Origin: Psammoneis japonica
Taxonomy: Eukaryota
NCBI GenBank assembly: GCA_008632985.1
Contig: QPGO01000073.1
Span: 248,001 to 312,000, forward strand
Reading direction: 5' to 3'
Length of the DNA stretch: 64,000 nucleotides
Part shown: in pieces, positions 1 through 64,000 of the stretch
How the letters are laid out: each line of letters opens with the position of its first letter
Position numbering within the stretch: position 1 is the first letter of the stretch
The notes under the pieces: model-generated
What the model saw: only the letters and a program-made list of their open reading frames with translations
Told to the model about the DNA's origin: nothing
The model's database searches: none
Made by a program: the position numbers and the translations under genes

Positions 1-2300
1 CATTGGTGGAATGTTCCCTCTGAAGCACACCAAATTCTGCCAACCAAAATGATGTTTTCAAGAAACAAAATCATTTTGGTCATGAGCATCAATTTTGTCA
101 ACAAATTGCACCAACCCAAGTGCCCATTTTGGTCAACCAAAATGCACACTCAGGAAATGCCATTGCAGAGTTTTGGATCCAGAAAAGCAGGGCACACTTC
201 ATTCAGGACATGACATGAACACAAACAACATTGCACTCTCACTCATGCAGCCAAAAATTGTCAACTGCATGAATGGAGATGTTTTTCACGAGTGCAGATT
301 TGTCAAAACAGCAACATGTCTTCAATCAAATGGAGAAATCACCTGACTGCAAATCAAACGCTCTTGATGGCAGGAATGAGACCTGGATCATTGGTGTCCC
401 AGAGATGTGCAATCTTGGGCTTGCTCCAATCCATCTTCAAGAATTGGAAAAATCTGCTTCACTCCACAGTCATCTTGCAAAGTGTCCTGTGACCGCTGCC
501 CCCAAAACCTGGAGCTCATCAAGTCATCAAGTTGCAGCTTTGTGGTTCTCTGTCTTGGACAACAGTTGACATTGTCCTGTTGCATCGCCCCATCATGTGT
601 GCCCTGTTTGTGATCACATTGAACTTTGAGAAATGACACTCCAGCAAACACATTGCCACTCTGCTCCATTTGATTTCTGGATTTGATGTGCCCAACACCT
701 TGACATCCATCCATCAAACAAAAAGTGGCTTCAATCTGACCTTGCTGCAGCAGCTGCTGCTTTTGCCACCAAAAGCAAATGTCAATGGGGAGCCACACTG
801 AACCTGAAAGCAAGTCCTGTGCCAAATCAAAGGAAAATTAACCAAAAACAACACCTCATCACACCAGCCAAACTGATGACACATGAAGTTCAATGATGAA
901 ACAAAGACATCAAATGCAATGCTGGGCAGTCTGAAGTCAAGACAATGGCTCTGGAAAAAATGCCAAGCTGTGTCCATTCGTGTGTCCTTTTGTTCAAACA
1001 AATGCGGAGCAAGATGCTTTTCTGCCAGAGCAATGCCTGCAACTCAACTCTGACAAAGATTGCAGCACAGACAAGAAAAGGTGACACCTGCTGTTGGATG
1101 CTTGCAGCTGGAGAGCCTCTCAAATTGTCCTTGAATTGGCTGAAGCAGCAGCCCCATGGATCTGGGATTCTTGCCACACCTCAAATGCGCTTGCACAAAT
1201 GGGGCCATTAGAATTTCAAACAAAACTCTTTTCAATCTCCAGCAAATGCCATTTTCAATCTGTTTTGCCTGGGAATCATGTTCCAGAGCAAATTTTTTGC
1301 TGTGGTGCAGGGTTGGGAATGATGTGAAGCCCACAGCATTTTGCAGAAAAATGCAAGCTGATGACTCGGTGACCATGACTCCAAACCAATGACTTTTTTG
1401 CAGAAAGCTGCAAGTTCTCACATTTTTCCCAAACACCAGAGCTCAGTGCAAAAATGGCGCAGTTCCAGAACATTTCCCTGGAGCAGCCCTGGTCTTTCTC
1501 AACTGCTCCTGCTGGCATTTGTGTGATGCACTCCAGCCCCGCCCAGGTGGGGCTCCATGTGACGTGGGCCTGCAGAGCTCCATTTGCAAGCTCCACAGCA
1601 AAGTTGTCAAGCAGCAAACGTGCAAACAATTGTCAACAGAAAAAGAGACAATTTTGCAAATGTGCCTCCTCTTTCACAGTTAAGCACATAATTTCAAGTT
1701 TGCCTGGGTGCACTCTTCAGACACCCAGCCTGGTTTTGCCGCCACCGATGTTGGCTGAGCACCCAATCATGTCAAACACTGCCATCAAATGATTGCTGAT
1801 GTCTTGTTGCCCATGCATTTGTTGTGTGCAAGCAACCCAGCAATTCAACAATGGAGCAATGGAGCTCAAATTGCAATCCATCCAATCATTGCAACAAATG
1901 AGTGACAAGTTGCCATGTCAGTGGAGTGTGTCATGCAGTTGCACAAGAGTGATTTCGATGACAATTGCAAGTGAGTGTCTCAAATTCATGGAGACATTTT
2001 ATTGAAGACAATGACCAGTGAAATGGATGTGGCACAAAATTGTGAGAAGAGAGCAAGTGTGCAGTGGAGGGAAATGAGAAGCAAAAGGAGAGCAACACAA
2101 ATGCGGGAACAAGTGGGTCACCTCTCTTGTGTCTCAGTCACGTGAGGTGGCAAGAATCCTAAATTGTCGAGGGGCATTTTGTCTTGTTGAGAACAATCCA
2201 TTTGTTTTACAAATGTGTCAAAAGGATGCGCTCTCTACCAGCAGCGAGTCGCATGTGCAGCTGCATAAAATGGCAAATGTGTTGATGGCTCGCCTGAATC
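1..2300. repeat. TpA/CpG-depleted degenerate repeat block (decayed transposon sequence, family not resolved)
   Basis: Only a few TA dinucleotides seen in 2.3 kb (e.g. ~1208, ~1681, ~1689, ~2000). ORFs are nearly Tyr-free and Cys/His/Gln-rich. Contains a MITE fragment. Normal composition resumes by ~2500. Confidence 0.75.
1531..1727 (-). mobile_element. Truncated, TpA-converted copy of the ~400-bp MITE family
   Basis: ctccag...caggtggggctccatgtgac...caacagaaaaagagacaattttgcaaa...cctgggtgcactcttcagacacccag aligns with the reverse complement of ~51915-52120 and with 54303-54510; the internal hairpin is partly deleted. Confidence 0.75.
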
Positions 2301-2379
2301 TAGAAAAAGGCAGACGCCACGCAGCTCCACCCTTTCTGCTGGTTCCGGTGGGAAACAGCACACGCACAAAAAGCACTCA

Positions 2380-2452
2380 GAGAGAGAGAGAGAGAGAGAG
2401 AGATTTGTTCGTTCGTTCGTTCATTCGTTTGAGAGAAAGAGAGAGAGAGAGA
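2380..2452. repeat. Compound microsatellite (GA)n-(TTCG)n-(GA)n
   Basis: Directly visible; lies at the border of the TpA-depleted block. Confidence 0.95.
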
Positions 2453-2979
2453 GTTGCTGACTCTACGAGAAGCGAGATTTGCACCTCCGTTTGAAGGAAC
2501 GATCGAGACCAACATGGGCTAGAGCAGACCAACAACACCTTTCGCTAAGTGCGCACTGCTGCAAAAGAGATCTTTCTTTTGTTCGTCCGTTTGTTTGAGA
2601 GAGTTTGGATAATGATAGATTTGAATAATAGATTCGGGCTTGACTGCTTGTCGATCAATCGATGGGACAATGTGGTGCACTCTAGAGGCTAAAGTCGACC
2701 ACCACCTCAAACAGTCTTGACGGCAATGGGACTAGCTTTCAGTTGATTGGACAAAGATCTGGAAACAATGGCAACTACCTTTTAGTGAGTGGCACACTCA
2801 AGAGAGATTGCAATGCACAGACCAAAAGAGGCCGGACGGAAATATATCTGGGAGAACGAAGTTACGGAATTGCAACACAACAAGTTGAGCCAATGGGGCT
2901 TGTACACAATACCATGGCTGCCTTGTGTATGAGAACTCAGATACTCTTCTTCATCCATCGTTTAGAGCAAAAGGTGAGC

Positions 2980-5064
2980 TCATCTACCCAACAGTCCTTT
3001 CTTGCGGTAGACTTTTTCCTTGTACTCCTCTGTCAGCGCCCTCACTTTGTCCAGCTTTTTGAAGAGGTCGGCCCGATTTATCTCGGGAAGTTTTACCGGA
3101 TCCTGATTCATCCAGTACTTGTCAAAGTCGAAAATGCGAATGTATTCGCCTTTTACAATCATGTTGCAACACGTATTCAAATCGTATGGTCTGATGCCGT
3201 TTGCCGTGAAGATATCATAGGCTTGGACTAAAAAGTCACTGTAGTAGGAAAAGTTTGCTGACCATTCGTTCCGGTGCTTCTCTTCACTTTGGTTCTCACC
3301 CTTTGGGAGGATGTTTTCCATGACGAGAACGTGACAATCGTCGTCTTTGTGGTACAATGCTGGAAAGAAGCGGGTGTCGGTTAGCACGTCAAATGCAAGT
3401 TTTTCATGTTGGTATGCTGCGGGTAGCATATGCTTCACGACAGTGTCACGGTTGATGCAAACTGTGGTTTCATTACGACGACTATGGCACTTGCTTCCCT
3501 CAAAGTAGGAATCTAGCTGTGACTGTTCACATCCCTCACCAAAACGCGTCACCTGCCAATTGCTGAGATCTTCTTCTTGCCAATATTTCACTGTGTAACC
3601 ATTCACTTCATCAAGCATATCTTTCAAGTGTGCACGATTCATCTCGCGAACGTCAGAAGGCTTCCGATTCAGCCAATACCTATCAAAGTCGAATATACGT
3701 ACGTAATCTCCTTTTACAACCATATTGCAACAGGTGTTCAAATCTTTCGGCATGATACCGTTTGCCGTGAATATCTCGAATGCTTCTGTTAAGAAGTCAC
3801 GGTAGAACGTAAAGTTTCCAGACCATTTGTTAACGTGCTTCTTGCCCTTTGGGATAATGTTTTCCATGACAATCACGCGACAACTGTCGTCTCGGAGGAA
3901 CAGCTTTGGAAAGAACCGGGTATTGTTTAGCACTTTAAATGCCTCTGTTTCTTGTCTGTAGGTTCCCGGTTCCATGCGTTTCAAGACATAGTCAGGATTG
4001 ATACATACCGTCGTTACATTGCTGCGAGTTTCGCACTTGTTCCCTCGAAAGTACAAGTCCAGCTGTGACTGCGTGCATTCTCCCTTGTTGATCGAACGCA
4101 TCAGTTGCGTAATGTTGGCGGCCTCTTCCGGCTCGTCTAGCCCTTTGTCAATGGAACCTTTCTTTTCAGGCAAACTTTCGTCGGTAACTTCATTCACAGC
4201 AGCAGCAGGTGGCACAGGATGTTGACACGTGCTTTTGGGGGCTTCCTTTTGCCTGTGCTGCTCTGTCAAAACCTTGACCTTTTCCAGCATTTTGTTCAAG
4301 TGGGCAAGATTGGTCTCGCGAATGGCACCAGGATCCTGATTCAATTGGTACAGATCAAAGTCGAGTATCCGTATGTACTCCCCTTTTACAATCATGTTAC
4401 CGCATGTGTTCAAATCATGCGGTTTTACGCCGTTTGCCGTGAATATTTCATATGCATCACTTAAGAAGTCGCGGTAAAACGAGTAGTTGGCCGACCATTC
4501 ATTCTTGTGTTTTATCTTTCCCTTCGGAATAACGTTTTCCATGACAATCACTTGGCAACTGTCATCTCTGTGGAACAACTTTGGAAAAATCTGGGGGTCG
4601 TTTAGGACTTCATATGCTCTTGTTTCGTTAACGTAATGTCTTTCCATTCCCATGTGTTTCACGACATAGCCAGGATTGATGCACACCGTGTTGCCATCGC
4701 GACGAGTCTGACACTTGTTCCCTCGAAAGTGCAAGTCCAGCTGTGATTGCTTGCAGTCTCCCTCGCTACTAGAACGCTTCAGTTGCGTAATGCTGGCCGG
4801 GGTATCGTTCATCACGTTCAACGGCTTCGACATGTTCTGTTTTCGCATGTTGTTGTCGGCGGTTTCTTCTTGAACGGCGGTAGGCGACAAAGGACGTCCT
4901 GCCGTACGTGAGTCAAACATTTTGTGCATCTTCCATTCATTCAATGCCTTATTGTCGGAGGATAGCTTCACAAAAAGGAGAGCAATGCCAAAAACAAGAG
5001 GAACCCCACGTGTTCCTCGTCGACGCGGCACTTTGCCATTGACAAATTCACTAGCATCGGCCAT
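2980..5064 (-). CDS. Type II membrane protein with three tandem protein-kinase-like domains
   Basis: 694-aa ORF with an N-terminal basic patch and hydrophobic segment (VPLVFGIALLFV). Three ~170-aa repeats each carry V(V/L)K, a Glu helix, P(K/A)L, VMEN, PxDLNTCxN and DFD, matching kinase-like fold motifs. Confidence 0.75.
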   Translation of the reverse strand: MADASEFVNGKVPRRRGTRGVPLVFGIALLFVKLSSDNKALNEWKMHKMFDSRTAGRPLSPTAVQEETADNNMRKQNMSKPLNVMNDTPASITQLKRSSSEGDCKQSQLDLHFRGNKCQTRRDGNTVCINPGYVVKHMGMERHYVNETRAYEVLNDPQIFPKLFHRDDSCQVIVMENVIPKGKIKHKNEWSANYSFYRDFLSDAYEIFTANGVKPHDLNTCGNMIVKGEYIRILDFDLYQLNQDPGAIRETNLAHLNKMLEKVKVLTEQHRQKEAPKSTCQHPVPPAAAVNEVTDESLPEKKGSIDKGLDEPEEAANITQLMRSINKGECTQSQLDLYFRGNKCETRSNVTTVCINPDYVLKRMEPGTYRQETEAFKVLNNTRFFPKLFLRDDSCRVIVMENIIPKGKKHVNKWSGNFTFYRDFLTEAFEIFTANGIMPKDLNTCCNMVVKGDYVRIFDFDRYWLNRKPSDVREMNRAHLKDMLDEVNGYTVKYWQEEDLSNWQVTRFGEGCEQSQLDSYFEGSKCHSRRNETTVCINRDTVVKHMLPAAYQHEKLAFDVLTDTRFFPALYHKDDDCHVLVMENILPKGENQSEEKHRNEWSANFSYYSDFLVQAYDIFTANGIRPYDLNTCCNMIVKGEYIRIFDFDKYWMNQDPVKLPEINRADLFKKLDKVRALTEEYKEKVYRKKGLLGR

Positions 5065-6734
5065 GTCGTTCTCGTGCTGCTATCTTTCATGAATGTCCTG
5101 GTAGCTTCCGTTGTTACGGTGTCAAAGATGCTAAATACAGTGCTTTCGATTTTTTATTACTGAAAAGGTGGCCGGTGGCCGGTGGTGCGGTGAGCAAAAC
5201 AATGGGTTCTCGTTTCTCTGCAGAGCATGAAGAAAGTCATCGCAGGACAGATTCGGATATGTCCGTCCGTGCAAAGATAGTTACAGTAGCAGTCGCAGAA
5301 TCTCAGAGCTCTAGAGTAGTTGTACTAGAGTAAAGCACATTTTGGATTTCTCCGATGCGGATATGTTTCCACGATGATGATGCATACACTCGACGAAGGC
5401 GAAGCTGCATCACTGTTGTCCTTGTAGTCCGGTATCTTGACCCGCGTTCCCTCTAGTTTCTCTCCGTGGAAGACGCGGAACGCTATTGTTGCTATTTTCC
5501 ATATTCATCAGTAAAAGTTGCTCTACACTCTGTAAAATTTTTGACACGCGAGAGGTTTGGAAGATCCTATAAAACTCGTAGTGTTCTTCAGCGGTACAAC
5601 GAGACTATTCAAGAAATGGAATACTCCACAGAATATTTCATTTGTGTGCGACTTTTCGAGTGAGAGTTATTACAATACTGAAGCAATGTGATAGTCCTTC
5701 CAGCTCTAGCACCATGGTAGACAGTCAAGCTATCCATCGTGCGTCTTGCTGATCTAAAGGTCATCGATTTGGGAGCTCAAGTCGAATCCGTTGAGGATTC
5801 TTTTACTAGTGGCCACCTCGCCGTGGAACGAGAGAACGAAGAGACGTGCACCATACACAATGCAGCTATCCATTTGGGGTCAAGATCTCTCGTCTGTGAA
5901 TTCAGATGATCCTACATTGATTCTGCTGTCTCTATATGCCAGGCTCGAATGCGCCGTGATGAAGGTGCTGTTCCTAGTTGGACGTTCTGCTTGACGAAAT
6001 TTATCTTCAAAGTCGCAGGGGATGCCCATCATGATTCTTCCTTTGGACAAGTCCTAGAAGACACAGACAATGATTTGGTACTTGATAAGCTAACCATTCC
6101 GTGTTTGTTTTGGATAGAGTGAGGATGAGAGTCTGACGAGTCTTTCCGTGTTTCCGGAGCGATAGTGGGAGGCACAGTTGAAACGGAGTATGGAGTGTAA
6201 CTATCGGCGACCGTGCATCCTCATTCAGACTGCAAGTGTGGGACAAGCATATGGATCTGAGTGAACTCAGCATTCATTTCACCCTGCAAACCTGCCTCTT
6301 CGAGTCTTCGAGGATGTCACCGAAAGTACCTACTTCTCGGGTTGGGTGCGTGCGGTTCCTCTCCAATTATCTCGGAAACGCCGCAGAGGGAGGGCTCAAG
6401 GACCGCACGTATAGTGTCGGAGATCAAGAGGACGATAAAGACTTGAATGGATGAAGAGTAGGAGGTTGACTCTCTATTAGATGCGGAATCGCCCTTGAAA
6501 TCAGGTGAACTAGGTCCTCGTTTTCTTTCAGCCGCTCGGACACACCCCAATAAATAATGTGGCGAATAGTCTGATGCAATATCTGTTGAGGTAGTCAGCA
6601 CCGAAGTAGTAGGTTTACTTTCTTCCATTATCAGTCGCTGACATAGTGCATATTCGGCATGGTGCAGTACCTGCAACCCTCAACTACGAACCGATTGACA
6701 TATGGCGTTGCCGTCCCTTTGCCTTGAACGCAAT

Positions 6735-7204
6735 TTATACAGTACCCATGACCGCCATGACGGAAAAAACGGATGCTACCAATGATAAATAGGTACGCAC
6801 ATCGTTCAACTTGTTCCAAGCTTGGATTTCGTCTTTCACCTTATCGCCATCGGTTGCTGCCATGAGAATATCGTCCTTGGGTTTCACACAAAGAGCTGTA
6901 AATGGGCCACATGCGCCAAGGAGCAACGACGGTATCCACCACATTTTCTTTTCGGTGAGATTGCCGTTGCCATTGCCACCATCGTCAGGGGAGGAGCAGT
7001 TGCTTTGAAGAAGTTAGTGGCGAGTGGGAAAACTCCCTGATAATTCTCCAGTTGGTACTGGGGAGATTTGCTGGCTCGTCCAGGAACTTCGACAAAGGTT
7101 ATGTACGCGACCCCACCCGTCACCACACCCATACCCAACAAACAACCTAACTCCAATGTCTGCAAGGTGTGCGGATGTGTCAGATAGTGCCCAAGGCAAC
7201 TCAT
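6735..7204 (-). CDS. DUF1772/anthrone-oxygenase-like membrane protein, one frameshift near 6955
   Basis: ORFs 6884-7204 and 6735-6944 join into a multi-TM protein with YITFVEVP...PFTA..VKP...WNKLNDVRT, typical of this family. Confidence 0.6.
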
Positions 7205-7399
7205 TGTTATTGTCGTTGCTGTTGCTTTGAAGATGATTGTGAAGAAGGTAAATTACCGCAGGCACAAGGTGAGCCCTACAACTGCAACACTTCGGACTGC
7301 GATTGACCTGACTCAGCGCTCAGCCCGACTGAATGAATGAATGAAATAAACAAATTGTGAGCGTTCGTGCGTGGGTGCGGTGTTTGTACCTTTTTCTTC

Positions 7400-8320
7400 G
7401 CACTCCGTTTTGGGGCATTCCTTTTGTTCCTTGGAGTGTGCCTCATGTTCCACACTTTGTTGCACCTCAGCCTCATTGCGTGACAGCATGTTTTTGATCT
7501 CACTCAGCCTGATGTGGTGTTGACGAGTTGAAGCACCACCTGGCAGAGCAGCATTCAAGAAGTCTCCTTTCTCTCAAGACATCTTCAAAAGGCACAGGTG
7601 CTCTTTTGGGCATGGCCTTTCAGCAGAGCAAGCAGATTGTTTGTGTGCATTTCTTGCACCACAGCTCAGGCCAGAAAAGAGCAAAAATGAGAAGTGCCAG
7701 AGAGAATGTGACCCCCACAGCTCTGCGTGTTAAAAAAGAAGCACCAACAACATGTTTTCTTAAAAAGCTGCAGCAAGCAGCAGAAAACAGAGCTCTGCAG
7801 GCATGTGAAACTCACGGGGGCACCCAAGCTCTCACAACCCACTGTTCAAGCAGAGAGCCTTTGCGCAGGCAAAAAGGTGCCAAAGGAGCCAACTGGGCCT
7901 GAGGACATTCTCCACACACCTCAAATGATGGTGAGGCTCAAGCATCTGGTCTGGAGGCTCCCAGAGTGGAACCTGCCCCAGAGTCTCCTGAACATTGGAA
8001 GAGAGCTGTGTGGCACAAGCACGCTGCGTGGCACGTGTGTGCTCCCTGCGCCGCACCACTTCCAGAGCTTCTGCTGCGGGCTTGTCAGCACCATCACCCA
8101 CAGCACCATTTGTTCCATTCCAGTGTCAACAATGCCCATTGCCTGTGATGCATCCTCAACATTGCCAACTGGGAATCATCCCTCTGCTGAGGGAGTTTGT
8201 TTTTGTGCAATGCTGCGCCGACACACATGAGATGAGAAAAGAGCAGCACAAAAATGTGGCATCCCACAGGACCTGGTGCACAGATCCATGATCTCATGAG
8301 GCGTGCAACAAAGGCTAAGA
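7400..8320. repeat. TpA-depleted degenerate repeat block
   Basis: TA nearly absent (survivors in ttaa at ~7731 and ~7761); ORFs in all frames lack Tyr. Confidence 0.7.
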
Positions 8321-8831
8321 TGAAAAAGTGTGTGACTTTGTTTTAAGTTGATGTCCCAATTCATTCCTTCCTTCCCTTCTCTATCCCCTTGCCGGTGCCG
8401 GTCGCAATTTGGGGGGCGTCTTTGGAAGTGAGATCGTCGAAGGCGGTCTGATCGCCAGTGCGTTTGGGGTTTTTTCCAGTACAATTTGTACGCACAAGAA
8501 AACACGGTCCAGCGGTCCCAAATACCCAATCGCACTGATTGACAGACTGTTTTAGTACAAATTCTACGTAACTTTCTTCGACAGTCTCACTTCCGAAGAC
8601 GTCCCCCAAATTGGCCCGTGCATCTGCTACAGCATTTCTCTCTGCGCTCACTGCATTCCGCGCGCAGTGTCGGAAGCACATTGACATTCAGCACGATGAC
8701 AAACTTTGTGTGGTGCTAAGTAGCTACTCTGCCTATCGTTATCGTCCTGTTCATCTTACCATAGAAGGAAGACTTATTCTATCATCTCTGCATAGCAGAC
8801 ACACGCAACCTGATTCAACACAGCACGTATT

Positions 8832-9227
8832 ATGCAATTCAGAGTTGTTATTCCGTCTGGTGTCCGTTCCGGTCAAACCATTCGTATTCGTTGTCCCGAC
8901 GGCAGCGAAGGCGATGTCAAGGTCCCAAGGGGCTTACGGCCCGGCGATTCCTTTATATTTGAAATGCCCGATGTCTTTCCTCCCAAATCATCATCGTCAT
9001 CGTCGTCTTCGTCAGCCAGTGTGACGGCAGAAAAGAATGGGTTTTTGGATCGAGAAATTGCCACCATGCAGGATTTTATCATGGCGCTTGGAGTCGGACT
9101 TTTGATTGGTGGATCCATCGTCTTGGGGTTCTTGTTGGGTGTTCTGGCTGTGACGGATCCTAATTATCAAGTGGAACCACTCACTGCAACACCGCCGCCT
9201 CCACCAAAAATGACAATGGGTGTGTAG
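8832..9227 (+). CDS. Small hypothetical protein with a VxIP-G-G repeat domain and a C-terminal TM helix
   Basis: FRVVIPSGVRSGQTIRI / VKVPRGLRPGDSFIF internal repeat, Ser linker, hydrophobic segment; may have an upstream exon. Confidence 0.7.
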   Translation: MQFRVVIPSGVRSGQTIRIRCPDGSEGDVKVPRGLRPGDSFIFEMPDVFPPKSSSSSSSSSASVTAEKNGFLDREIATMQDFIMALGVGLLIGGSIVLGFLLGVLAVTDPNYQVEPLTATPPPPPKMTMGV

Positions 9228-9678
9228 CTAGAAAGACCTGAGCTGAACCGAGCTGAGCAGTAGTAGTACTCTTCGGGGAGCAGGTAGAGGGGATGACAAT
9301 TGGTTGTGAGGGTATGCAGATCACCTTGCGCTATATTTTCTGCTGATAGTATCTACGAGAGGAATCCTCGAGCTATTGCATATCGAGATCGATATAGAGA
9401 AGCTTCTCGTGTTGAAGCCGCGTTGTTTTTGTTTGGGGTATTTGGATGTTTAGGAGTTTTTCTTTTTAGCTTCATATTTAAGATAGATATTGTAGTGACG
9501 ATGAAGTAGTAGCTGTGTATGTTTGCATGCTATATTTATGCTGTCACATTAAATCCCGAGATCTAACGAGGCCAATTTCGAAACAGGGATTACAAGTGGT
9601 CCTCGGCATTCAAAGATATAGAGAATAGCTCCAAGCTATTCCGCACATCGATAACAGAACCACGATTCCCGTTCCTTT

Positions 9679-11472
9679 CTAGTTTCCGAGGAAAAAGGGG
9701 TGCCAACTTGGATTTAAATTCGTGATTGTAGAGCCACGCCGCAGGACTTTCTTTGTAACGATACCGGTGGGAGAAGTGTTTGGTTTCCTGCGGCCTGGTC
9801 TTGACACGGCAATGCTCACGTCTGCATGCCACGGCACGCGGTTCCTGACAATGCCATGGACTCGAATGGTGACTGTCTTTCCAGAACCGCTGTAATTCTG
9901 AATGGCATGGGATTGTCCGGCGCCTAACTTAGCTACAAGTGTGGACTGACCTGTCCTTCCTTGCTTTATGATTGTAATGAGGTTGCGTGCTTCGCGGGTG
10001 CCCCTTGTCATCCCAGAAGCGCGGTTGAAACCAATGTGATAATTCGCGTTCCTGTGCTTGAGTCTAAGAGTCACCAGCTGATTACCTTTGGCGTGTTTGT
10101 ATTCGGAAATGCCAACAATCTGTCCTCTCCACTTGGTAACTGCAAGTGGATTGATTGCTCTTTGTTTATCCCTATACCATCCAAGCTTGATACAAGAAAA
10201 GAGCGGGTATGAAACACACTGTCAGGCGATGCACAGAAATGACATACATTTGAGTTACAAAGCGTGGGCTTTTCTGTTTCCGTACCTGCCAAGATTTTGC
10301 AGCGTTGAAGCACATTCTAGGGCCCTCGTCACTCAGGTACGAGTAACCCATGAAACCTGACTTATCCCCGTATTGAGTTTTAGCATTGCCAGAATGAGAT
10401 AGATTGAGATTATGAGCTGAAGACAAAACCAGAGAAAAAGAAGAAGCACAACGCGGTGAGCAACGTGTATCTTGCATGTTGGAGCCATTCAAAATCGCCA
10501 GAACTGCCTTACCAATCTCGTGAACTTGTGTACTGACGCTGTTACACCACCTGTCGTTATAGACGGAGAGCCAGTGATCCTCATACGCGTACGCCTGCCA
10601 ACCTTCTGGCGTTCCAGGAGGGAGACAAATCATCACGTGATCAAACTGCTTTTCCAAGTTTCCAAATTGCTTGTTAGCGGCGTTGACTACGGCGTTCCTT
10701 AGTTTCGAGTCATTCGCATTCTTTGCATTCATTGGAATCCTAATGGTGGTTACTCCACCATAGACTCTTCTGCCTCCTCTTGTCTTTCCATGGAATTTCT
10801 TCAAAATAAGTTTGCCATAGGAACACCTTTTGAATCTCTCGACAAGATTGAATGAGTCTCGACTATTTGGGCCAAATATGTCGGCGCGGATCTCTCCTAT
10901 ACTTTTTGTTGTAGTCGAGTCCTGTGCGACAGTCTGGATGACCAGCACTGTTCTCGTGCCCATCTTTGCCGTAGGCCTTTTCCATCTTCTCCATAATTTC
11001 CTGGCATCTGTGCTTGATATTTGGGGAACGGTCCCACGTTTGACATTTAGGTCCATGTCATTCAGAGATCCGACAACGGTGAGCTCAACTCTCCCCTTAT
11101 CCATTGCTGGCTTAAGTTTTCTTTTGGCCCAATTACTATCGAGTCCCTTTATTGTCACAATGGTGCCTGAGTTAAAGCCTGGGGCATATTCCGGGTACAA
11201 TTCCAGCTCCAATTGCTCTTGTTGAAAAATGTTATTGGCGGTTCTCCTATCGCCGCCACGTCTGATGACACGCCCTTTTATCCTTCTCTCCTGTTTATTC
11301 TTACCTCGAAGGCTCTGTAAATAATAAACACAAGATGCGAGGTGAGACAAAAGGCCTTGCGAGAACGCCCACAATGATGCAGCTCCATAGCAGATAGCAG
11401 TTCACTCACCGTCGAGCTGCCTAAAACTATGTTCGACGCTATAGACAAGAGCAAGAAACGTAAAAGTATCAT
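9679..11472 (-). CDS. Secreted gametolysin-like metallopeptidase (M11), multi-exon
   Basis: Signal peptide MILLRFLLL. HEIG|HNLNLSHSG zinc motif is split by an intron (~10420-10510). YGDKSGFMGYSY and MCFNAAKSWQ follow; second intron at ~10190-10280. Confidence 0.85.
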
Positions 11473-12281
11473 CTCTCATGGGTGAATTGCTCCTGTTTAT
11501 AAAGCATCTGCTTCAGTTTCAATACCGATTCGTGGTCGGGAGAGGGACTGCGTTATTGAGAGGAACGAGAATAGGAGATATTTGGTGAAAGATGAGCAAA
11601 CCGACGAATCTCCCCACGACTTGGACTCAACTTTTTCGAAAAATGTCTCAAGGCACACTTTGCATGTTCTCTTAGAAAAGACATTTGTCTCTGATGAGTC
11701 ATAAGACTGCTTGTGACTTCATCGAATAAAAGTTCACGACTACAGGTATGTCCCAGGGCAATGGTTGTGCGAGTTGTCTCACTTTTTGTGGTCTTTAGTG
11801 ATGTACAGTACCGTATGCCTGCGATCTCTGATGTTTCCCAAATTCTCGTTCTCGAGCTGAGGTTGTTCTTCTGGGTAGACCTGCGATCCCGTTACCGATG
11901 ACGAAGAAGGGGAAGAAACCATCTTTGCCATCTCAGCAAGCATTGAAGCGATGACTACGCTACGACCCCAAGGATGGCACAAGCGCCAGAAATTCGAATG
12001 CGTTGTGACCTAGAATTGAAATCGTGATGGAGGCTCCGTTTCATGCATTAGTCCTGCAAGCGGCAATTGCTTCTCCCACGAAAGTGATTCTTGCAGTCTT
12101 ATACCAGCTCAAGGGCATCGTGCATTCGCCTATAGCGTCGTTTTTGAGTGCAAGACGATATAGCGGCACTTTTTCGCGAGAACATATTGGCATCTATTGA
12201 CATATCCAGAGCACAACTTTTCTTATTTACAAGGATGATACACGTTGCTCGGCCATTCAACGACGAAAGAGGAAAAGGGGA

Positions 12282-19077: not shown

Positions 19078-19080
19078 GGT

Positions 19081-19177
19081 TACAACAACTGTACAATAGG
19101 CTAATAAGAACTTGAGAGAGGCAACTTTTTACAACAACTGTACAATAGGCTAATAAGAACTTGAGAGAGGCAACTTA
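19081..19177. repeat. Two-copy ~49-bp tandem repeat immediately upstream of the DUF6824 gene start
   Basis: tacaacaactgtacaataggctaataagaacttgagagaggcaactt occurs at 19081 and 19130. Confidence 0.9.
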
Positions 19178-35515: not shown

Positions 35516-35640
35516 TCGACGAGTAGTCGCCATGCTCAACGAGCTGTTCAGTTCTTTCGACAAACTGGTTGACATGTATAGTTTGAACAAGGTCAAAACT
35601 ATTGGAGATTGCTACATGACACCACTATCCCTGGTGTCAT
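35516..35640 (+). pseudogene. Short duplicated fragment of the cyclase catalytic domain
   Basis: gagtagtcgccatgctcaacgagctgttcagttc...aacaaggtcaaaactattggagattgctacatg matches ~34660-34775 and ~38850-38965. Confidence 0.85.
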
Positions 35641-41273: not shown

Positions 41274-41390
41274 GGTGATACAGGGACGAATGTCGAATTT
41301 ATCAGAACCGTGAACCGTCACAACAAGCGTCGTGCGTCGTCGCAGGATGCTCGGGTTCGCATCGTGGCATTCCACATCGCTAAAAAAATG

Positions 41391-52800: not shown

Positions 52801-54290
52801 CAAGAGTGCCCACAAGCTCGGATTGCTCAATGAATGGAAAGTCTGGGGTGCAATTGGCCCAATCCTGTCTGACCATTTCGAGTGTGACTTGGCAGAGCTG
52901 AACAAATGTGGACTTGTTGGTTGGCAACATTCCAACTGGTTGGCAACGTCACCAGACGGATGGATCACATGCAAATCTTGCCCCCCCTTCCTGCACGGAT
53001 GAAAGTGGCAGAGCTGATTCAAGTCTGAGTGACCGACTCTGTGCTGGATCAGAGATGAAGTCACCTGCAGGAAAGGACACAAAGAAACTCGTCCAGTGAC
53101 ATCAAGATGAGTTTGGCAATCATTCAATGCACAAATGTGATGATGCTCTTTTCAAGGCGTTGGTTTGCAAACTGGAGTGCCGAGTCCAAGTGTTGCATCA
53201 TGCCGTGGTTTGCAGCTTTGAAAAAGTTCTGTTCATGGTGGCCAATGAATGCAAACCAATGTTCTCTGTTGTGGTGTCTTTTTGAGAAGACCAGAAATGC
53301 AACTGCGAGACTTTGTCATTTCAAACACATCAAAGGGACTTGGAGTGGGTGCACACAACAGCATGGGACAATGAGTCGAATCCAAAAAACCACAGGCCAC
53401 ACCAAGCAATGCTCACAACATTGATCATGACACCATTTTGTTTCAATGCGCAATGTGGCACAAGCTGCTTCTAAAAACAAGTGCAGCAAGAATGCCACTG
53501 CCTGTGGCAAAGTGCATGGTGTCATCCATTGCAGCTTTCTGTTGGAACAAGGGAAAGGGAAGGATTGATGAAATGAGCCAACACTTGTTGCTCCACATGA
53601 TGTGACACATTTCATGTGGAACACCAAAGCAGCTTTTGAGTCTTCAAGAAATTGAAAAAAATGTCTCTCTGAAGAAGCAATGTCATCATTCCTTCCCAAA
53701 AGAAGCACCCAAAGGAAGAACACTGTGTCAGATCAAGCACGCACTTGACAAAAGAGAAGGGTCTGTCACAGCTTTTTTGAGTGAGCTTGCTGCCACATGC
53801 ACCACAGTTGCACAGATGCCTGCGACACCTGCGTCTCCATGCACGGCCTTCCACACACCAGTGTAGAAAGCTGTGCAGAATTTTTGCATGAAAATTGACC
53901 AATTTCATGGTCAAACGATGAGTCAACTGCAAGATTCAATGGGTCTCTCGAATTCAAATGTCTTGGTCTGATTTTGCAAAACACTTGAAACACACAACAC
54001 TGCATGGCCGGCCGTGCACTGTGCACTGGGAGTGGGGGCAGGTGTGCTGCCGTGCCACAGCAGAGTCGTCGGGCACACAACGTGCGCATGTGTGGGGCCT
54101 TGCCCTGCACATGACAACATCGTGCCAGGCAATGTGCCGGCCAGGAGACCTCCAACTGCATGGACCGCCACACGTCACCCATGCACTCCCTTCCCTTCTC
54201 TCTCTGCTTGCAAGCCTCACACTCCACTCCCTTGCCTGCTTGCTGCCCCAACAATGCCTGAACCCTGAGCAGTTCTGCCTCATGCTGCAA
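49810..54290 (+). mobile_element. Decayed DNA transposon block with DDE-transposase-like and YqaJ/lambda-exonuclease-like remnants
   Basis: Acidic N-terminal region (50511-51176); LVTDDDKLRMRS; GD*GH (probable GDRGY) at ~51577-51591; CGLV...WLATSPDGW, EMKSP and QVLHH at ~52905-53200. TpA-depleted except for the nested MITE. Confidence 0.55.
51729..52128 (+). mobile_element. 400-bp MITE, unconverted TA-rich copy
   Basis: Terminal inverted repeats GACG(T/G)GTTCCAG...TAGGTGGGAC...TGTGACAT; flanked by ATGT on both sides; perfect 14-bp-stem hairpin at 51917-51949. Confidence 0.9.
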
Positions 54291-54297
54291 CGCAAAT

Positions 54298-54694
54298 GAC
54301 AGGTTCCAGTCCCAGGTGGGACTCCGTGTGACATTGGGCCCGCAGAATTCTGTGTGCAAGCTCCGCAGTAAATTTGTTCTGCAATGAAAATGCACATGAT
54401 TGCCAACAGAAAAAGAGGCAATTTTGCGAATGCATCTCCTCCTCCATGCTTGAAGCACATCATTGACAGTTTGCCCGGGTGCATTCTTCAGACATTGAAG
54501 AACACACCCAGCGCATTTTCATTGTCACAAATGTTGAAAACAGAAAGCCTTTGGCTTCGCAAAACAGGGAGTGTGAAACAATTTCAGAGAACATGACATG
54601 CAGAAATGCATGTGCATGACATGTGACACGATCCAAAAAACCATTGATGTCACAGTGCAGCAGTGCCAGGTCCCACCCAGAGCTGGAACGCGTC
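54298..54694 (-). mobile_element. Full-length, TpA-converted copy of the same MITE (inverted)
   Basis: Aligns end to end with the reverse complement of 51729-52128; flanks are caaat / taaat. Confidence 0.9.
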
Positions 54695-55520
54695 TAAATT
54701 GCAGCTCCCCATCTCGCCCCCACCAGCTCAAGTCTGCCTCTTGCCCCTCTTGCTCTGGCACCATTGACCCATGCGGTGACCACGCCTTCTGCTGCCAATC
54801 CCTTGGACACAAAACAACCATGTCCAATGCCATCCATGATGGCCCACGTGCCACTTTCCAAACACTTGCCCTGCTTTCCGGCATCTGCGTGCTTTCTCTT
54901 CCGCCTCACATCATGAACCAACCAACCTCCTGATGCCTCATTCACCCCTCAAACGCCCCACCAATGCGGGCATCCAACTCACCCCAGCCACCTTTGCTGC
55001 CTCCCCCATTGGCCACCGACACCTCGCCATTGATGTCGCTGTCCCCAACCCCCCCCCCATTGCCTGCTCCTGGCTTGCCTGCCCCCGCCCTCAACCCTCA
55101 CACCGAGGCACACCATGCAAGCACAAAACGGAAGTTCAACGGAACCCATGAGACTCAAAATGAAGCAACCCTCACATCCGCCCTTGACAACACCGGCAAC
55201 CACCTCATTCCCTTTGCCATCGACCATCTGGGGGCCCCAGGCCACACTTTGCCCATCGCCTTCTTTTCTGCGCCAACCAAGACCACCCCATCCCTGCCCC
55301 ACCCGCCCCACCCTGGACCACTGAACCCTCCTTTCAACACCCAGCTGCTCATGCCGCACACGCCTGTGCCCAACAATCCCCGTCCGCCATCCTCCCTGCC
55401 ACCACCGACACCTGGCAAACCATCTCTCTGCCGAACACTTTGGCCTGACCCACCACTCTTCAACTCCGTCACAATGGGGTCTTCAAAGCCTGAGCCTTGC
55501 AATCACCAAATTGCTTGCTG
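54695..55520 (+). mobile_element. Decayed 3' end of an RLE-type non-LTR retrotransposon (CCHC knuckle plus restriction-like endonuclease)
   Basis: CPSC...DPCGDHAFCC...NAIHD, KRPTN (probable RPAD), LAIDVAVP, HLIPFAIDHLGAPG. Confidence 0.75.
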
Positions 55521-55779
55521 ACCAACTAACCCGCTACTCCACCAAACTACAATCTCAAACATCCAACCCCAACTCGAAATCCATCCCTTTTCCTGCCTAC
55601 ATGACTCAGTCCGTGCAGTTCCACCTCCGCGTCTGTCCCTTCCCCCGTGCCACTAGCTAGTTGCACGTGAACTCCTCACGCGCGCGTACGGTACTACTAC
55701 CGTACATACGGTAGGTAGTTTCCCTAAAACCCATGATAACTTGAACTGCCAACAATAACGTCGAGAATCATCGAGGATC

Positions 55780-59024: not shown

Positions 59025-59399
59025 CATTGTCGGTAATGTTGCCGGATGGGTCACACTCATTTTCTCGGACCTGGTCGTTCGAGAAACAGGGCCTAGGACG
59101 CCGTTCAATATATGAAAGGAGAAACGATTCCATCATGGACCCGTTTGCCTGACCATGAAATGAATTTCGCGGCACCCGACTTTGCACGCCGTTCCGGTGG
59201 TGCTTTCAAGTAGGGTGACCTAAGTTGTCATGAGGGCAATCTAGATTTTCTGAATTTATGTTGAGCCTTGTAATACTTGATATGAAACAGCACAGTAAAA
59301 AGTTGCCAACCCATGCACGTTTGTCTGTCAATTTGGGTTCACTCCTCTGACATCTAGAACAGCTGTGAGTCCTTGAGGAGGTCATTCCGACTGCAACAA

Positions 59400-60131
59400 C
59401 TCCATTCAATTTCTGCTCTTCATCTTGAGACAATTCCTCAAACACTTGCAAAAAGGCCTGGGTTCGTTGTGCCCCCGAAAGACCACAGGGTGTTTGTCCT
59501 TCGGCTCCAATGACAAAAAAGGGAACACCTGACCTGTGATGGCGTCATCACCTGGATTCAATTTCCTCCAATGCTTGCTGCATGCTCTCTTTGCTCTCCA
59601 GAAATGCTTGAGTCTCTTGCAGCTCTGGGATTAATTTTGAACTTGCCACCTCGACCAATGCACCGCCCATGAGAGAAACATTTTCACCCTCTTCATGAGT
59701 GGCTTCAAAGAGAACTTGGTTCACAAGACTCATGTCAATGCTGTGCCTTGTGTTTGCAAACCACACGAGACGATGCACCAAAAGGGTGTGTGACCACCAC
59801 TTCCAATTCAAAAATTTTGCACTGTCTTCTTGTCATTTTGGATCTCGCATCCATCCACTCCCACCCCAACGGCGGTGATTGCATGCTTCAAACTCTTCTC
59901 CCACCTTGTTGGTGCCATTGTCAATCATGTGAGTTTCCAGTTGACATTGACATCATTGCCCTGAAAGTGGTCCATGGCCTTGTTCAACCGCATTTCCCCC
60001 ACCAAACACCAGGGTTGGGCCAAATCAGAGCAGACTGCAGCACGAGCGGGTGGTTTTGCAGAAAGAGACATGGCACACTGGATGGCAAGCAACAACAATG
60101 CAAGTGATGAGAGCCTCTGCAGAGTTGTCAT
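59400..60131 (-). pseudogene. TpA-converted DsbA/FrnE-like oxidoreductase pseudogene
   Basis: Signal peptide; VCSDLAQPWCLVG..RL.KA; HRLVWFA; LFEATHEEGENVS; FLESKE; SGVPFFVI; LSGAQ..QAF. Contains stops and frameshifts and no Tyr. Confidence 0.75.
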
Positions 60132-61299
60132 TGTGTTGGTGTCTGCCGAGTCATTTTTCCAAACCAAGAAACAGGTTGCAATTTCAAATTGCCCTTTTCC
60201 CGCCTTTTTTTTTGGTTTTCATTTTTGCACACATTTTGTGGAGGGGCCTCTTTTCACGGAACGTGCCTCCACACTCCGTTTCAAGGAGATGCCCAAGGAA
60301 TGTGGCAAGCATGTTCCATGTGACCATTGCTCTCTTTGCACTCTACAATGATGACCCATTCCCGGTGTGCATTGCACACAATGCACGTGGCAAAATTCAT
60401 GAGATTGCCCAAAATCGCTGACGTGCATCATGGGCAATGCACGTGACATCTTTTTGCACAACTTTGTTGTTTGACTTGTCTCTTAAAGAGCCTCAGTTAC
60501 AAATGCCAACACATCCTTGTCATCTGCTGTGCTTGACATGCTTTGTGCTGTTTTTCCAGGGTTTGATTGGCTCAGCTTGTTTTCCAACAATTGCTTCATT
60601 TTCCACCACTCAGAAAGCACGCGACAATGCACGCAAACAAGACACAAAAACTTCTGACCCTGCTTTGTTGTTGAGAAGCATTTCCAGGTGAGACAAGCAA
60701 AATCTGGGATGACAATGACCCTGCATGGAAAAAAAGATGCAGAAATGGACTGATGCATTGCCCACAGCACACATGCAAAGAAGCTGTGCAAGTTTTCCCA
60801 CCACAAGTGCCCAGTGTTTGTGCATCAGCTTTGATGAGACAGGTTGACTTGGCACTTTTTGCTTTTGGGGAGGAACAACCTTCCATCCACTGCAAGATTC
60901 ATGTGGTCACTCTGATTCAAGCTTGGCAGGGGAAAGGCATGAGAGGGTCTGAGTTGGTGTGCATCATGTGCAGCATCATGTGCAGCATGCACTGTTGTGC
61001 ACATTTTGCATGCATGCATGTGCATTTAAATGTTGCTGCACTCCAATTGTGCATCAATCATGGGTTTGTGCGAAGGACAGATCAACTGCACAGAGTTGAT
61101 TGGATGTCAAAAATTGCAAACACAATTGCTTGATGATGTTGACATCTCATGTGTCAATGACAATTGCATCCAGACAATCTGTCATCATGATCACATTTTC
61201 CAAAAGGCCTTTCATGTGCACAAGCATCACAGAAGCTTCAGGGCATTGAGAGCTGATTCAGAGAAACCCGGAATGATTGAGCAAAATCTAATCTCATGA

Positions 61300-63828
61300 T
61301 TTTCACTTTTCACACTTCACTCTGCTTTTGTCTGTGCTCATTCTTTGAGCACATTGCATTGTGGCAGACAATGGCACTCATGAAATTCTGAGCTGAGCAC
61401 CAAATGTTGGAAAACCAAAATTCCCCAAGGGTGGAGCCTTCAAAAAATGTCAACAGCACCTTGCAAGGCATGTTTTTCCCAAGAGCGCACTTCAGGTTCA
61501 GAAGTGTTGTCTGCAGTGCAATCTCAAGAAACCAGAGATGATGAAAATTTGAGAAATTGCCGCTTGGGTCCAAGAAGTCATCAAAGACCTCAAGTTCCAC
61601 CCTCCCTTTTAGGAAGATCAGAAGATCAAGGCAACAAGCTCAAGGACATCCTTCACAATCTTGCACTTGCCATTGTCAAGGTTTTGAAATTTTGAAGCAT
61701 GCCTTTGACAAGTTGGTCAAGTTTTTGGAGCATCTGGAGGTTGCCAAGGACACATTTGACTCCATTCATGTCAAGGCTGATGCCAGCAGCAAGTCTGGAT
61801 CAAAAGCAATGACAAATCCAAACATGGTTCCAAAAATGGTTGCCAATCTTGTGCCAAATGGTCTGAGTCCAACAAGTGGTGCAATTGTTGTGAAAAGACC
61901 ATTCATGTTGTGGACAAGCGCTGGGTCACATCAAGAGACCAGGCAGCAGAAAAAAAACTCAAGGCAAGTTCATCAAAGAAGAACATGAAATGCAAGGACA
62001 AAGAGTGCAGCTCTGACACCCTCACTGAGGAGAAATGCCAATTGAAAAATTGACTCACAGCAAATCTGATGAATGACTGTTGTGTGCAGAGGAGTCGTGC
62101 GCATCACTGGATGTCAGGAAGCCCAGACAAAAGGCCAAAGTGGCACACACTGGTCCACCAGCAGTCATTGCCTGCATGACACTTCTCCAGAAAAAGAGAA
62201 AAATGAGCCTTTGTGTGTTCTGCTCAACAGCGGAACATTGTCGACCACAATTTTGCAGAAGTTTGTGTGAAAATTGAGAATGAAGAAATCTGCTGCCAAA
62301 ACTTGGGAAACCAAGGGTGGGCTCTTCACAACTGACAGCTGCTGTTCAACTCAGTTCTCATTGCCTGAATTTGACAAGCATGAAAAGAATGAAGCCACTG
62401 TGCATGTGGACATCAGCGCTGCTTCTTCATGTTGCTGTGATGTGGTCATGGGACATGACTTGATGTCCAGTCTTGGAATTGTCCTGGACTTTGTGAGTGA
62501 AGAAATTGAATGGGAAGATGCCATGACCACACCCATGAAGAACCCAATGCCATTTTGGATGCCAAAGTGTTCGCACTGATGGCCAGTCACATTGAAGAAT
62601 CTCATGCTGTGAAAAGTCTTGATGACAGGATTGACAAAATCCTTGCAGCGACTGTCATGCTGCCAACCTCAATGATGCAATGGCTGCTGCAACTCAGCCA
62701 ACTCCAGTGGAGCAGAAACAACTGAACTTCCTCCTAAAAAGATTGGAGCCCTTTTTTGTGGTTCTCCAGGCAAATGGACAGGGAAACCAGCGCATCTCAA
62801 GGTGAAGCTGGGTGCATGTCTGCATCACATGATGTCATTTCCCGTCCACAAGCCTTGGAGGCAACCACTTGCCAGGAGGTTGTGAGACCATGCAAGCCAA
62901 AAGTGCTAAGAAAAATGACCATTTGAGTGGGCAGCTCCAACCTTTGTTCAACCCAAAAAATGGCCAAGTTTGGTTTCCACCCAACTTCCCTGAACTGAAC
63001 AGTGGTCAATGCATGCACTGCATCCTCTGCCAGATGTTCAGGACATGCATCAGAAGCCAGAAGGTTTCAGGTGTGCAAACTCACTTGATTTAAACATGGG
63101 ACACCATCATGTCAAGTTGGTGCCATTTGCACAGCACTTGCACAATTGTCATGTTGTGGGGCAAACATGAACATTGCAGACCACCCATGGACATTTGTGG
63201 AGCTCCAGACATCTTTCAGGGGGCACATGAGTGAGCTGATGGCAGGTCCAGAGTTTGTCAGGATGCGTGTTGACACCACATGCCATGCACTGAAAAAGGT
63301 GACTTCAAAAACCACCTCTCAACACAGATGATCTTCATGTCGCTCAAACAAGCTGGTGTCAAGCCACCAGAAGTTGACTGCTTGGGCTTTCACATCACCT
63401 GAAATGGCGTTGAGCCAATGCTTGAGAAAGTGGAGCAGATTTGCTCCATTGCAACTCCTGCAACTTGCAAGGAATTGCAGTGTTTCATTGGTGTGTCGTC
63501 AATTGCTTTTGGGGCATGTGGCCTGGACGGTCTCATGTGCTGCCCCTTGGCCAGACTTGGATGAGCACAGAACAAAAAGCCTTCAAAATGTGAAGTGCAC
63601 TGTGTCAAAATGTGTGCTGTTGTCATGCCCAAATTTCAACAAACCCTTTAAGACACACACGCTGATGCAAGCAGTGCTCAATTGGGGGTGGTTGTGACAC
63701 AAAACAACTGACCCATTGCCTTCTGCAGTTGCAAGTTAAATGCACCAGTGCAGATGCACTGCACTGCAACAGAAAAAGAACTTCTGTCCATGGTTGAAAC
63801 ACTTGAGGAATTCCAAAACATCCTGTTT
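61300..63828 (+). mobile_element. Decayed Ty3/Gypsy LTR retrotransposon (gag-protease-RT-RNase H), interrupted by a MITE
   Basis: VLLNSGT protease site, WETKGGLFTT, CDVVMGHDLMSSLGIVLDF, PDIFQ..MSELM, LLSCPNFNKPF, DAS, PIAFCSCKLN, TEKELLSMVETLEEF. Confidence 0.9.
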
Positions 63829-64000
63829 GACGCGTTCCAGCCCTGGCAGGTGGGAGCTCGTAGTGCTGACGTGTGACACAAATAATTTTTGTCATCCGTC
63901 GTATGTTTCGCACGTGCATTTCTACGTGTGACATTAAAAAAAAATTGTCCAGACTCGCTGTTTTGCGAAGCCCCAGACGTTTTACATGACGAATTTATAG
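63829..64000 (+). mobile_element. Partially converted MITE copy running off the window end
   Basis: GACGCGTTCCAG terminus; tcatccgtcgtatgtttcgcacg is identical to ~51793-51815. Confidence 0.9.

Follow-up and report, generated by a model that had tools for sequence, protein, structure and literature searches.

Hypermutation confined to the dinucleotide TpA has been described in mutation-accumulation lines of the chlorarachniophyte Bigelowiella natans (Mettrop et al., bioRxiv 10.64898/2026.01.13.699255). In these lines, two integrated viral regions had collected 231 mutations, of which 230 were A>G or T>C and were all located on TpA. The rate was about 1000-fold over background, in some lines only, and the de novo events were obtained from Illumina reads. 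The same text reports 324 TpA-poor coding sequences enriched for reverse transcriptase (RT) and DDE domains as well as 124 TpA-poor clusters, puts forward an ADAT2-like deaminase as candidate, and quotes the preference of ADAR for a 5' U. Here, a signature of this kind is described in a diatom. The DNA analysed, referred to as the window, is a stretch of 64,000 nt from Psammoneis japonica (contig QPGO01000073.1, positions 248,001-312,000), within which all counts on this genome were made. It carries tracts in which TpA has been almost completely replaced by TpG and CpA. An earlier note on this DNA, made from the sequence alone, knew of no description of such a process; the 2026 preprint on B. 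natans does describe TpA-only hypermutation. No report of TpA-erasing hypermutation in a diatom was found in the literature searched, which was a limited collection.

The two cases are alike in that A>G or T>C changes at TpA give TpG or CpA in discrete regions, the rest of the genome or window being ordinary. Both display TpA-poor clusters rich in CpA and TpG, which are enriched for RT and DDE domains in B. natans, where the process was active in some lines and thus episodic. They differ in the host, a chlorarachniophyte there and a diatom here. The best-studied targets in B. natans are single-copy, integrated giant-virus and virophage DNA which is partly depleted (Rho TpA 0.45), whereas the observed/expected ratio (o/e) reaches 0.02 in the present tracts. 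Here, the targets are CpG-decayed and include a host gene fragment and copies resembling miniature inverted-repeat transposable elements (MITE), and a flank preference was found which is not described in the part of the preprint at hand. Finally, de novo events were measured in B. natans, in contrast to fixed differences here. What is new in comparison with B. natans is the saturation, the co-extensive CpG decay, a host gene fragment which was hit with its functional twin spared, the unmutated MITE copies, the flank preference and, in addition, traces in environmental diatom DNA.

Extent of the TpA-erased tracts

Six TpA-poor blocks, together about one third of the window, had been proposed in the earlier note. 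Dinucleotide counts matched their limits almost to the base. The fifth block (49964-55526) is broken by a TA-bearing island at about 51504-52184, and the tally thus covered seven tracts with 20,258 nt or 32% of the window, the last tract being counted to 63648 (Table 1). Only 29-30 TpA were seen in these tracts, whereas base composition would lead to 1,348 and the TpA frequency outside to 808. TpA o/e is 0.024 in tracts versus 0.586 outside (Poisson P about 1e-293), with single tracts ranging from 0.007 to 0.037. The longest run without TpA extends over 2,186 nt (given the TpA frequency outside, P about 1e-38). The reduced CpG and abundant TG and CA claimed for the blocks were recovered as well: CpG o/e is 0.27 in tracts versus 0.96 outside, TG 1.91 versus 1.17, and CA 1.72 versus 1.19. 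The G+C content is alike (48.4% in tracts, 47.8% outside) and ApT o/e is unaltered (0.88 versus 0.91). GpC o/e is slightly up (1.21 versus 1.03), as expected from GTA>GCA and TAC>TGC.

TpA loss and CpG decay are co-extensive in the tracts. The change is local, with sharp edges where the transition takes place over tens to a few hundred nucleotides, and the adjoining genes are of normal composition, as the earlier note had it. The erased tracts occupy intergenic space to within about 100-350 nt of the neighbouring open reading frames (ORFs), and the non-coding DNA between tracts is normal (for example, TpA o/e of 1.04 at 19001-20000). This confirms that the TpA-erased tracts are a real feature.

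Direction of change

Self-comparison of the window revealed two pairs of sequences, each with an erased and an ordinary copy. Pair 1 consists of the dead copy of an Ephrin_rec_like gene part and its ordinary paralogue, in which the C-terminal part of a gene of 1386 aa (44880-49040) is followed by the 3' flank. Pair 2 consists of two MITE-like copies (51729-52130 and 54296-54694). TA of the ordinary copy was replaced by TG or CA at 67 sites over both pairs and the reverse was found at 1 site, in agreement with the transitions predicted earlier. The ordinary-copy TpA of pair 1 read in the dead copy as TG (27), CA (18), TA (14) or other (4), and ordinary-copy CpG as TG or CA at 25 of 78 sites; ordinary-copy TG or CA read TA once. 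The kept TpA sit at the left edge, conversion being patchy at about 41507-41758 and nearly complete from 41759. In this core, 32 of 36 TpA were converted, along with 20 of 68 CpG and 22 of 857 other sites (2.6%). This amounts to at least 42-fold over background for TpA, a lower bound with sites saturating and not a per-generation rate, and to about 7-fold for CpG. In pair 2, TA>TG was counted 17 times and TA>CA 5 times, with 1 TA kept and 9 other changes, and CG was replaced by TG or CA at 10 of 18 sites. TA>TT or TA>AA was rare in the pair comparisons.

The same direction was obtained at the protein level. The Gypsy pol remnant in the last tract matches RT_RNaseH_2 over the curated cut-off (E 1.1e-7), and its relatives are the polyproteins P0121 (E 7.7e-23) and P0122. 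Not one tyrosine is present in its 384 residues, compared with 3.6-4.1% in the relatives, and cysteine and histidine amount to 7.0% and 4.7%, respectively. Where the relatives display tyrosine, the remnant shows histidine (6), cysteine (3), other residues or gaps, but never tyrosine. The pair and protein comparisons indicate that the signature was acquired after insertion and directionally, across a retroelement, MITE copies and a host gene fragment. It does not represent the native composition of a family, because one MITE family has copies with 34 and with 1 TpA and because the twin of the gene fragment was not hit. The earlier view that the blocks hold unrelated material with a common signature was therefore borne out.

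These comparisons bear on the view that no special process has to be invoked, the tracts being of foreign native composition, or TpA having been lost through selection, GC-biased gene conversion or unrepaired ultraviolet (UV) photoproducts at TA. TpA is mildly low everywhere (o/e of 0.59 outside the tracts), which would suit such a view, but the same families and a host gene occur in both states, and the paralogue comparisons contradict it; it is hardly credible. GC-biased gene conversion was rejected on the grounds of unchanged G+C and dinucleotide specificity. UV lesions were rejected as well: thymine-adenine photoproducts give A>T, as stated in PMC13187834, a change (TA>TT or TA>AA) that is rare here.

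Known mutators of repeated DNA were considered next to these explanations. Repeat-induced point mutation (RIP) of ascomycetes resembles the present case by dense transitions in mobile or duplicated DNA, by sharp or leaky edges, by the destruction of coding capacity and by a link to DNA methylation; cytosine methyltransferases of the RID/Dim-2 type are required for RIP. In contrast, RIP changes C to T mainly at CpA, makes TpA and affects both copies, whereas TpA is destroyed here, in one copy. Membership of RIP was rejected in view of the single reverse change against 67 and the one-sided action on pair 1. Deamination of 5-methylcytosine (5mC) operates in the same tracts with the same TG and CA products, and the CG>TG/CA changes of both pairs are those expected of CpG decay, from which methylation itself is deduced. 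However, it offers no route from TA, and CpG lags behind TpA in the core of pair 1. As TpA loss is both stronger and faster, 5mC decay was rejected as the source of the whole signature. The statement in the earlier note that neither of these two processes accounts for the loss of TpA thus holds.

Deaminases of the ADAR, ADAT and APOBEC type share with the present case the deamination-type transitions, a fixed 5' neighbour and the aiming at repeats or invaders. However, ADAR edits RNA, so that only retro-copied elements would inherit the changes, whereas a MITE, a gene fragment and intergenic DNA were converted here on both strands. ADAR-type editing via retrotransposition was rejected for this reason and because TG and CA are about equally common and interspersed. 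APOBEC differs by changing C to T at TC or CC, which is not seen here.

Flanking context and chemistry

The TpA that survive in the tracts are strongly biased in context. Twenty-four out of 30 lie in TTAA or TTAG/CTAA, compared with 202 of 1,752 outside (P 3e-17). Sorted by flanking purine (R) and pyrimidine (Y), the survivors fall into 24 YTAR, 6 mixed and 0 RTAY, versus 300, 918 and 534 outside (YTAR versus rest, P 2e-13). In the pairs of the window, RTAY was kept at 1 of 30 sites versus 13 of 51 in other contexts (P 0.013), and the corresponding figures for the metagenome loci presented below are 1 of 18 versus 49 of 76 (P 6e-6; L038 excluded as duplicate). Conversion is fastest at RTAY and slowest at YTAR. 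TG and CA outcomes are about equally common in the tracts, and opposite outcomes were found 6 nt apart in pair 1 (TG at 42409, CA at 42415).

Three chemistries were weighed against this pattern. Deamination of adenine has about an even chance of being the one at work. An alternative is thymine chemistry, in which a TET/JBP-type oxidation of T at TpA to 5-hydroxymethyluracil (5hmU) or 5-formyluracil (5fU) would lead to mispairing with G and T>C. The comparable numbers of TG and CA would fit it, and TpA being self-complementary, A>G and T>C are inseparable from sequence. Dinoflagellate 5hmU indeed prefers TpA and 5-formyluracil is mutagenic. On the other hand, 5hmU and 5fU mostly pair with A, and near-complete conversion would need very high levels of modification. 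The only candidate published for the signature is a deaminase (10.64898/2026.01.13.699255). The thymine route is considered unlikely.

In another alternative, a double-strand adenine methyltransferase would mark (R)TA(Y) in silent DNA and deamination would follow, in parallel to the change of 5mC to T. The most susceptible sites (ATAT, GTAC and ATAC/GTAT) form the palindromic class, as for double-strand recognition, and the co-extension of TpA loss with CpG decay would fit. Against it, ApT o/e is unchanged in the tracts and known eukaryotic N6-methyladenine lies at ApT. This two-step scheme is considered improbable, and distinctly more so than the thymine route.

Comparison with a public read set and signs of recent activity

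Logan contigs from one public run (hereafter X1; depth about 60) were compared with the window over 24000-43999. They cover genes and tracts alike, with one contig (24776-28026) spanning a gene/tract edge, and they reproduce the TpA-free state of the tracts. Out of 285 differences between X1 and the window, 40 were listed, among which one adds a tract TpA and one removes one. Differences are far denser in tracts: 28 in 2,063 nt of tract contigs versus 9 in 7,433 nt of gene contigs (P 4e-12; density 11-fold). Tract contigs are here those located wholly inside the large tract, and the bridging contig, whose 10 listed differences all lie within the tract, was excluded from both counts. The 32 listed in-tract events consist of 5 adjacent TG<>CA swaps, 9 CG<>TG/CA, 2 TA<>TG/CA, 11 other transitions, 4 transversions and 1 complex event. 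The largest tract retains 85 CpG and shows 9 single CpG differences. Double conversion of one CpG is thus rare (about 0.1 expected), and the swaps in this partial list are best read as one ancestral TpA which was resolved in two ways in two lineages. The tracts therefore display signs of recent activity.

The X1 contigs also bear on the possibility of an artefact of sequencing, base calling or assembly at modified DNA, in which case the true sequence would be TA and CG. The tracts do coincide with DNA that is likely modified. However, X1 contigs at a depth of about 60 are TpA-free and span a tract edge, with one of the 40 listed differences adding TpA, and the same signature occurs in unrelated metagenome assemblies. 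Furthermore, a base modification misread as G would give all-TG or all-CA, so that the interspersion of both outcomes down to 6 nt excludes an artefact of strand read-out. For B. natans, de novo events were likewise obtained from Illumina reads (10.64898/2026.01.13.699255). An artefact is thus very improbable.

Gypsy copies in environmental DNA

Metagenome contigs were scanned with the Gypsy alignment, which gave 78 loci. TA of the family majority of P0121 was found as TG or CA at 20 of 37 sites in locus L032, 8 of 23 in L075, 7 of 23 in L038 and 18 of 42 in L006. In L032, which shows 59 differences in 1,396 nt overall, the reverse change was found at 4 of 250 sites (P 4e-17). As for the rest of the P0121 family, L002 and the two L007 copies show conversion at 0-1 of 42 sites, and L001, L003 and L004, which are more diverged, at 4-7 of 24-42. 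The clearly part-converted loci are only L032, L075 and L006. L075 and L038 represent one locus in two assemblies (98.95% identity), and in the Gypsy part one TG<>CA swap was counted between them, besides two CA<>TA and four CG<>TG/CA changes. A GH47 mannosidase gene adjoins the Gypsy fragment of L075. Among its named relatives, the best is from Seminavis robusta (51%), followed by Odontella, Bacillariaceae, Nitzschia and Attheya. Judging from these relatives, the gene flanking L075 is diatom-like.

As a separate observation, L007 carries two full and one partial P0121-type Gypsy copies in a row (1-12074) with none of 42 majority TpA converted and a CpG o/e of about 0.46.

Targeting

The converted DNA is of mixed origin, since the Gypsy remnant and MITE copies were hit and so was a host gene fragment. 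CpG decay is the usual trace of cytosine methylation, and diatoms methylate repeats at CpG. The changes are confined to silent-looking, CpG-decayed DNA, as proposed in the earlier note, silence being deduced from CpG decay. The label "repeat-targeted" given there appears doubtful, because only one member of the duplicated gene fragment was converted, with its non-coding flank included, because the tandem cyclase genes (82% identity) were left untouched, and because two MITE copies are unmutated in saturated DNA.

These findings are relevant for a RIP-like process triggered by homology, in which duplication itself would be recognised, perhaps in a sexual cycle, and TpA and CpG changes would follow. 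The multi-copy elements and the duplicated gene fragment among the targets speak for it, as does the mutated tract of pair 1, which coincides roughly with the duplicated span; episodic action would fit the unmutated MITE copies. The one-sided mutation of pair 1 with its non-coding flank speaks against it. Both the tandem cyclase genes, duplicated over 1.9 kb, and the internal repeats of the ORF at 2980-5079 are untouched, the largest tract has a single-copy-like X1 depth over most of its length (although depth is not copy number), and the direction is opposite to that of RIP, with TpA destroyed. Targeting therefore looks unlike duplication sensing, as one member of pair 1 was hit and tandem genes and internal repeats were not. 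Homology triggering seems unlikely, and targeting by silencing state rather than by homology is somewhat favoured.

Proposed process

That a real hypermutation process acted on the tracts is highly probable. In the most plausible reading of the data, which we hold with moderate confidence as a whole, it would be a locus-restricted and episodic hypermutation of TpA in silent DNA by adenine deamination. The process would convert TpA to TpG or CpA through A>G on either strand. Its targets would be transcriptionally inert, CpG-methylated-looking DNA such as degraded retroelements and MITE copies as well as a dead gene fragment, with genes and ordinary intergenic DNA being spared. Adenine at 5'-TA in DNA would be enzymatically deaminated to hypoxanthine, which would be fixed as G at the next replication. 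RTAY would be favoured and YTAR the slowest, and the reaction would run to saturation far faster than CpG/5mC decay in the same DNA. Recruitment would probably depend on the silencing state of chromatin and not on duplication per se, and the action would take place in episodes rather than continuously. The data themselves establish direction, specificity for TpA, flank bias and locality, as well as the indifference to element family and the agreement of the X1 reads; the deaminase, the tie to silencing and the episodic timing are inferred. The unmutated MITE copies and the untouched sister Gypsy copies fit episodic action, and equally a very recent insertion; either could explain the former.

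Several points weigh against this reading. MITE copies that still carry TA are found at two places within saturated DNA (51729-52130 and from 63828 up to the window end), so that location in an erased domain is not sufficient for mutation. Silencing and methylation are deduced from CpG decay only. The strand rule expected for 5'-TAY (YTAY to TG, RTAR to CA) is a trend only (18:10 versus 5:11, P 0.06). Clustering of TG and CA by strand is absent in saturated tracts (z from -1.9 to +1.9, as in controls) and weak in pair 1 (P 0.011). Such little clustering argues against a processive single-strand deaminase, for which runs are expected. No metagenome locus among the 78 lacks TpA over its whole length, o/e being lowest in L032 with 0.24, and the family-majority "ancestor" used for them is dominated by one subfamily. 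All changes are fixed differences with no de novo event, and X1 may share its sample with the assembly, though its contigs differ from the window.

A more far-reaching possibility, which is tentative, is that diatoms, and perhaps lineages of stramenopiles, alveolates and rhizarians in general, carry a dedicated genome defence by editing of adenine at (R)TA(Y) in double-stranded DNA, ancient and RIP-like but chemically opposite. A natural DNA adenine editor of a new kind would then be recruited in episodes to newly silenced DNA until TpA loss is complete. If this holds true, the TpA erasure of a rhizarian alga would also exist in diatoms, which are major primary producers, and there run to completion, suggesting a widespread and overlooked eukaryotic genome-defence pathway. 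Since genetic work is feasible in some diatoms, the responsible enzyme should be findable, and such a natural enzyme, with a defined motif for A>G changes in DNA, would be of interest both to base editing and to the study of mutation. The process would represent a GC-ward mutation pressure exactly offsetting CpG decay, as a result of which G+C content hides the erasure of TpA. Erased elements are left without tyrosine codons and with only one of the three stop codons, and evade domain searches.

Contents of the tracts

The coordinates of the tracts and of the elements recognised in them are given in Table 1.

Table 1. TpA-erased tracts of the window, with paralogues and mobile elements located in or next to them
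Feature	Position	Strand	Remarks
TpA-erased, CpG-poor tract, runs past window start	1-2160		5 TpA vs 160 expected; CpG o/e 0.15
Mutated MITE-like fragment	1542-1723		Inside tract 1-2160
Short TpA-erased tract	7388-8315		2 TpA vs 54 expected; CpG o/e 0.26
Largest TpA-erased tract	26480-33272		3 TpA vs 446 expected; CpG o/e 0.21
Dead copy, 3' part of Ephrin_rec_like gene and downstream flank	41375-42840	-	89.7% identity to 44397-45842
Near-complete conversion tract in dead gene copy	41759-42960		Graded edge 41507-41758
Ordinary paralogue, internal control	44397-45842	-	TpA and CpG ordinary; Pfam Ephrin_rec_like
TpA-erased tract, fifth block left part	49964-51503		2 TpA vs 111 expected; no domain
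Unmutated MITE-like element	51729-52130	+	34 TpA, 18 CpG; inside erased DNA
TpA-erased tract, fifth block right part	52185-55526		5 TpA vs 198 expected; CpG o/e 0.37; no domain
Mutated MITE-like copy	54296-54694	-	1 TpA, 10 CpG
TpA-erased tract	59356-63827		10 TpA vs 311 expected to 63648, then 63649 and 63737 only
Ty3/Gypsy-type pol remnant, spanning RT to RNase H and broken by stops and frameshifts	62722-63835	+	RT_RNaseH_2
TA-bearing MITE-like copy, cut by window end, inserted into Gypsy remnant	63828-64000	+	8 TpA, 13 CpG in 173 nt

The MITE-like family has a length of about 402 bp and ends in inverted repeats of about 25 nt, the intact copy having ATGT on either side. It is represented in the window by two ordinary copies (51729-52130 and 63828-64000) and two erased ones (54296-54694 and 1542-1723). 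The copy at the window end shows 83% identity to 51728-51873, and the tract 59356-63827 stops exactly at this insertion.

No mobile-element domain was found in 148 block ORFs of at least 75 aa. The six read-through frames of 1-2300 and of 26480-33272 and those of 49810-55526 gave no Pfam domain, and no long terminal repeats (LTRs) were found around the largest tract, which spans the gap between the divergent genes 25228-26313 (minus) and 33623-35296 (plus). The tracts 7388-8315 and 41759-42960 were scanned as ORFs only, and the ORFs of the former showed no domain. The read-through frames of 59330-64000 gave the RNase H match and a sub-threshold DSBA match, and nothing else. For about 13 kb of tract, no origin could be recognised. 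Among the contents named in the earlier note, the host-gene copy, the MITE-like family and Gypsy (in one block) were retrieved, whereas "non-LTR" and "DNA transposon" found no domain support. No Rfam family was found in the window.

The DSBA-like thioredoxin match (18.5 bits, cut-off 25.6) is located at 59445-59787 on the minus strand, at the left end of the last tract, and may be a further erased host-gene remnant. Within the largest tract, six near-palindromic units of 27 nt (AAGTTTGAGCAATTGCTCAAACTT type) form two clusters at 32082-32841, where the summed X1 depth is about 230 compared with 60. A segment of about 45 nt (28495-28538) is common to many contigs of X1 and of a second run, X2, with loose ends on both sides and summed depths of 538 and 202, the tract being otherwise of single depth. 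Most of this tract is devoid of X2 cover, which is not evidence of silence.

Genes between the tracts

Long genes with few introns lie between the tracts. Their products comprise two DUF6824 proteins, two PAS-adenylate/guanylate cyclases, a gametolysin-like peptidase, an Ephrin_rec_like and an NB-ARC/TPR protein, as well as ankyrin, IBR, RING/PAH and cyclin proteins. A deaminase domain was found in none of the 27 window gene ORFs scanned. The two genes coding for PAS and class III nucleotidyl cyclase domains (33391-35298 and 37563-39490), the tandem pair referred to above, are both of ordinary composition. The closest matches of one cyclase (63-67%) are environmental proteins, and its named relatives are all from diatoms: Attheya (48%) and Cyclotella cryptica (43%), then Skeletonema, Conticribra, Thalassiosira and Epithemia. 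An X2 contig omits 35300-35401, a segment with GT..AG ends, like a spliced intron; run X2 behaves like RNA.

Three further observations were made in DNA of ordinary composition. The region 42676-43999 shows a summed X1 contig depth of about 1,400 compared with about 60, with TpA and CpG o/e of 0.55 and 0.91 and no domain-bearing ORF seen; it may be a multi-copy sequence left unerased, although depth does not equal copy number. The region 2980-5079 (minus) holds a 699-aa ORF which belongs to no Pfam family and consists of three repeats, each about 550 nt long and with 69-74% identity. A perfect tandem duplication of 49 nt (2.0 copies) is present at 19080-19176 in TA-rich intergenic DNA.

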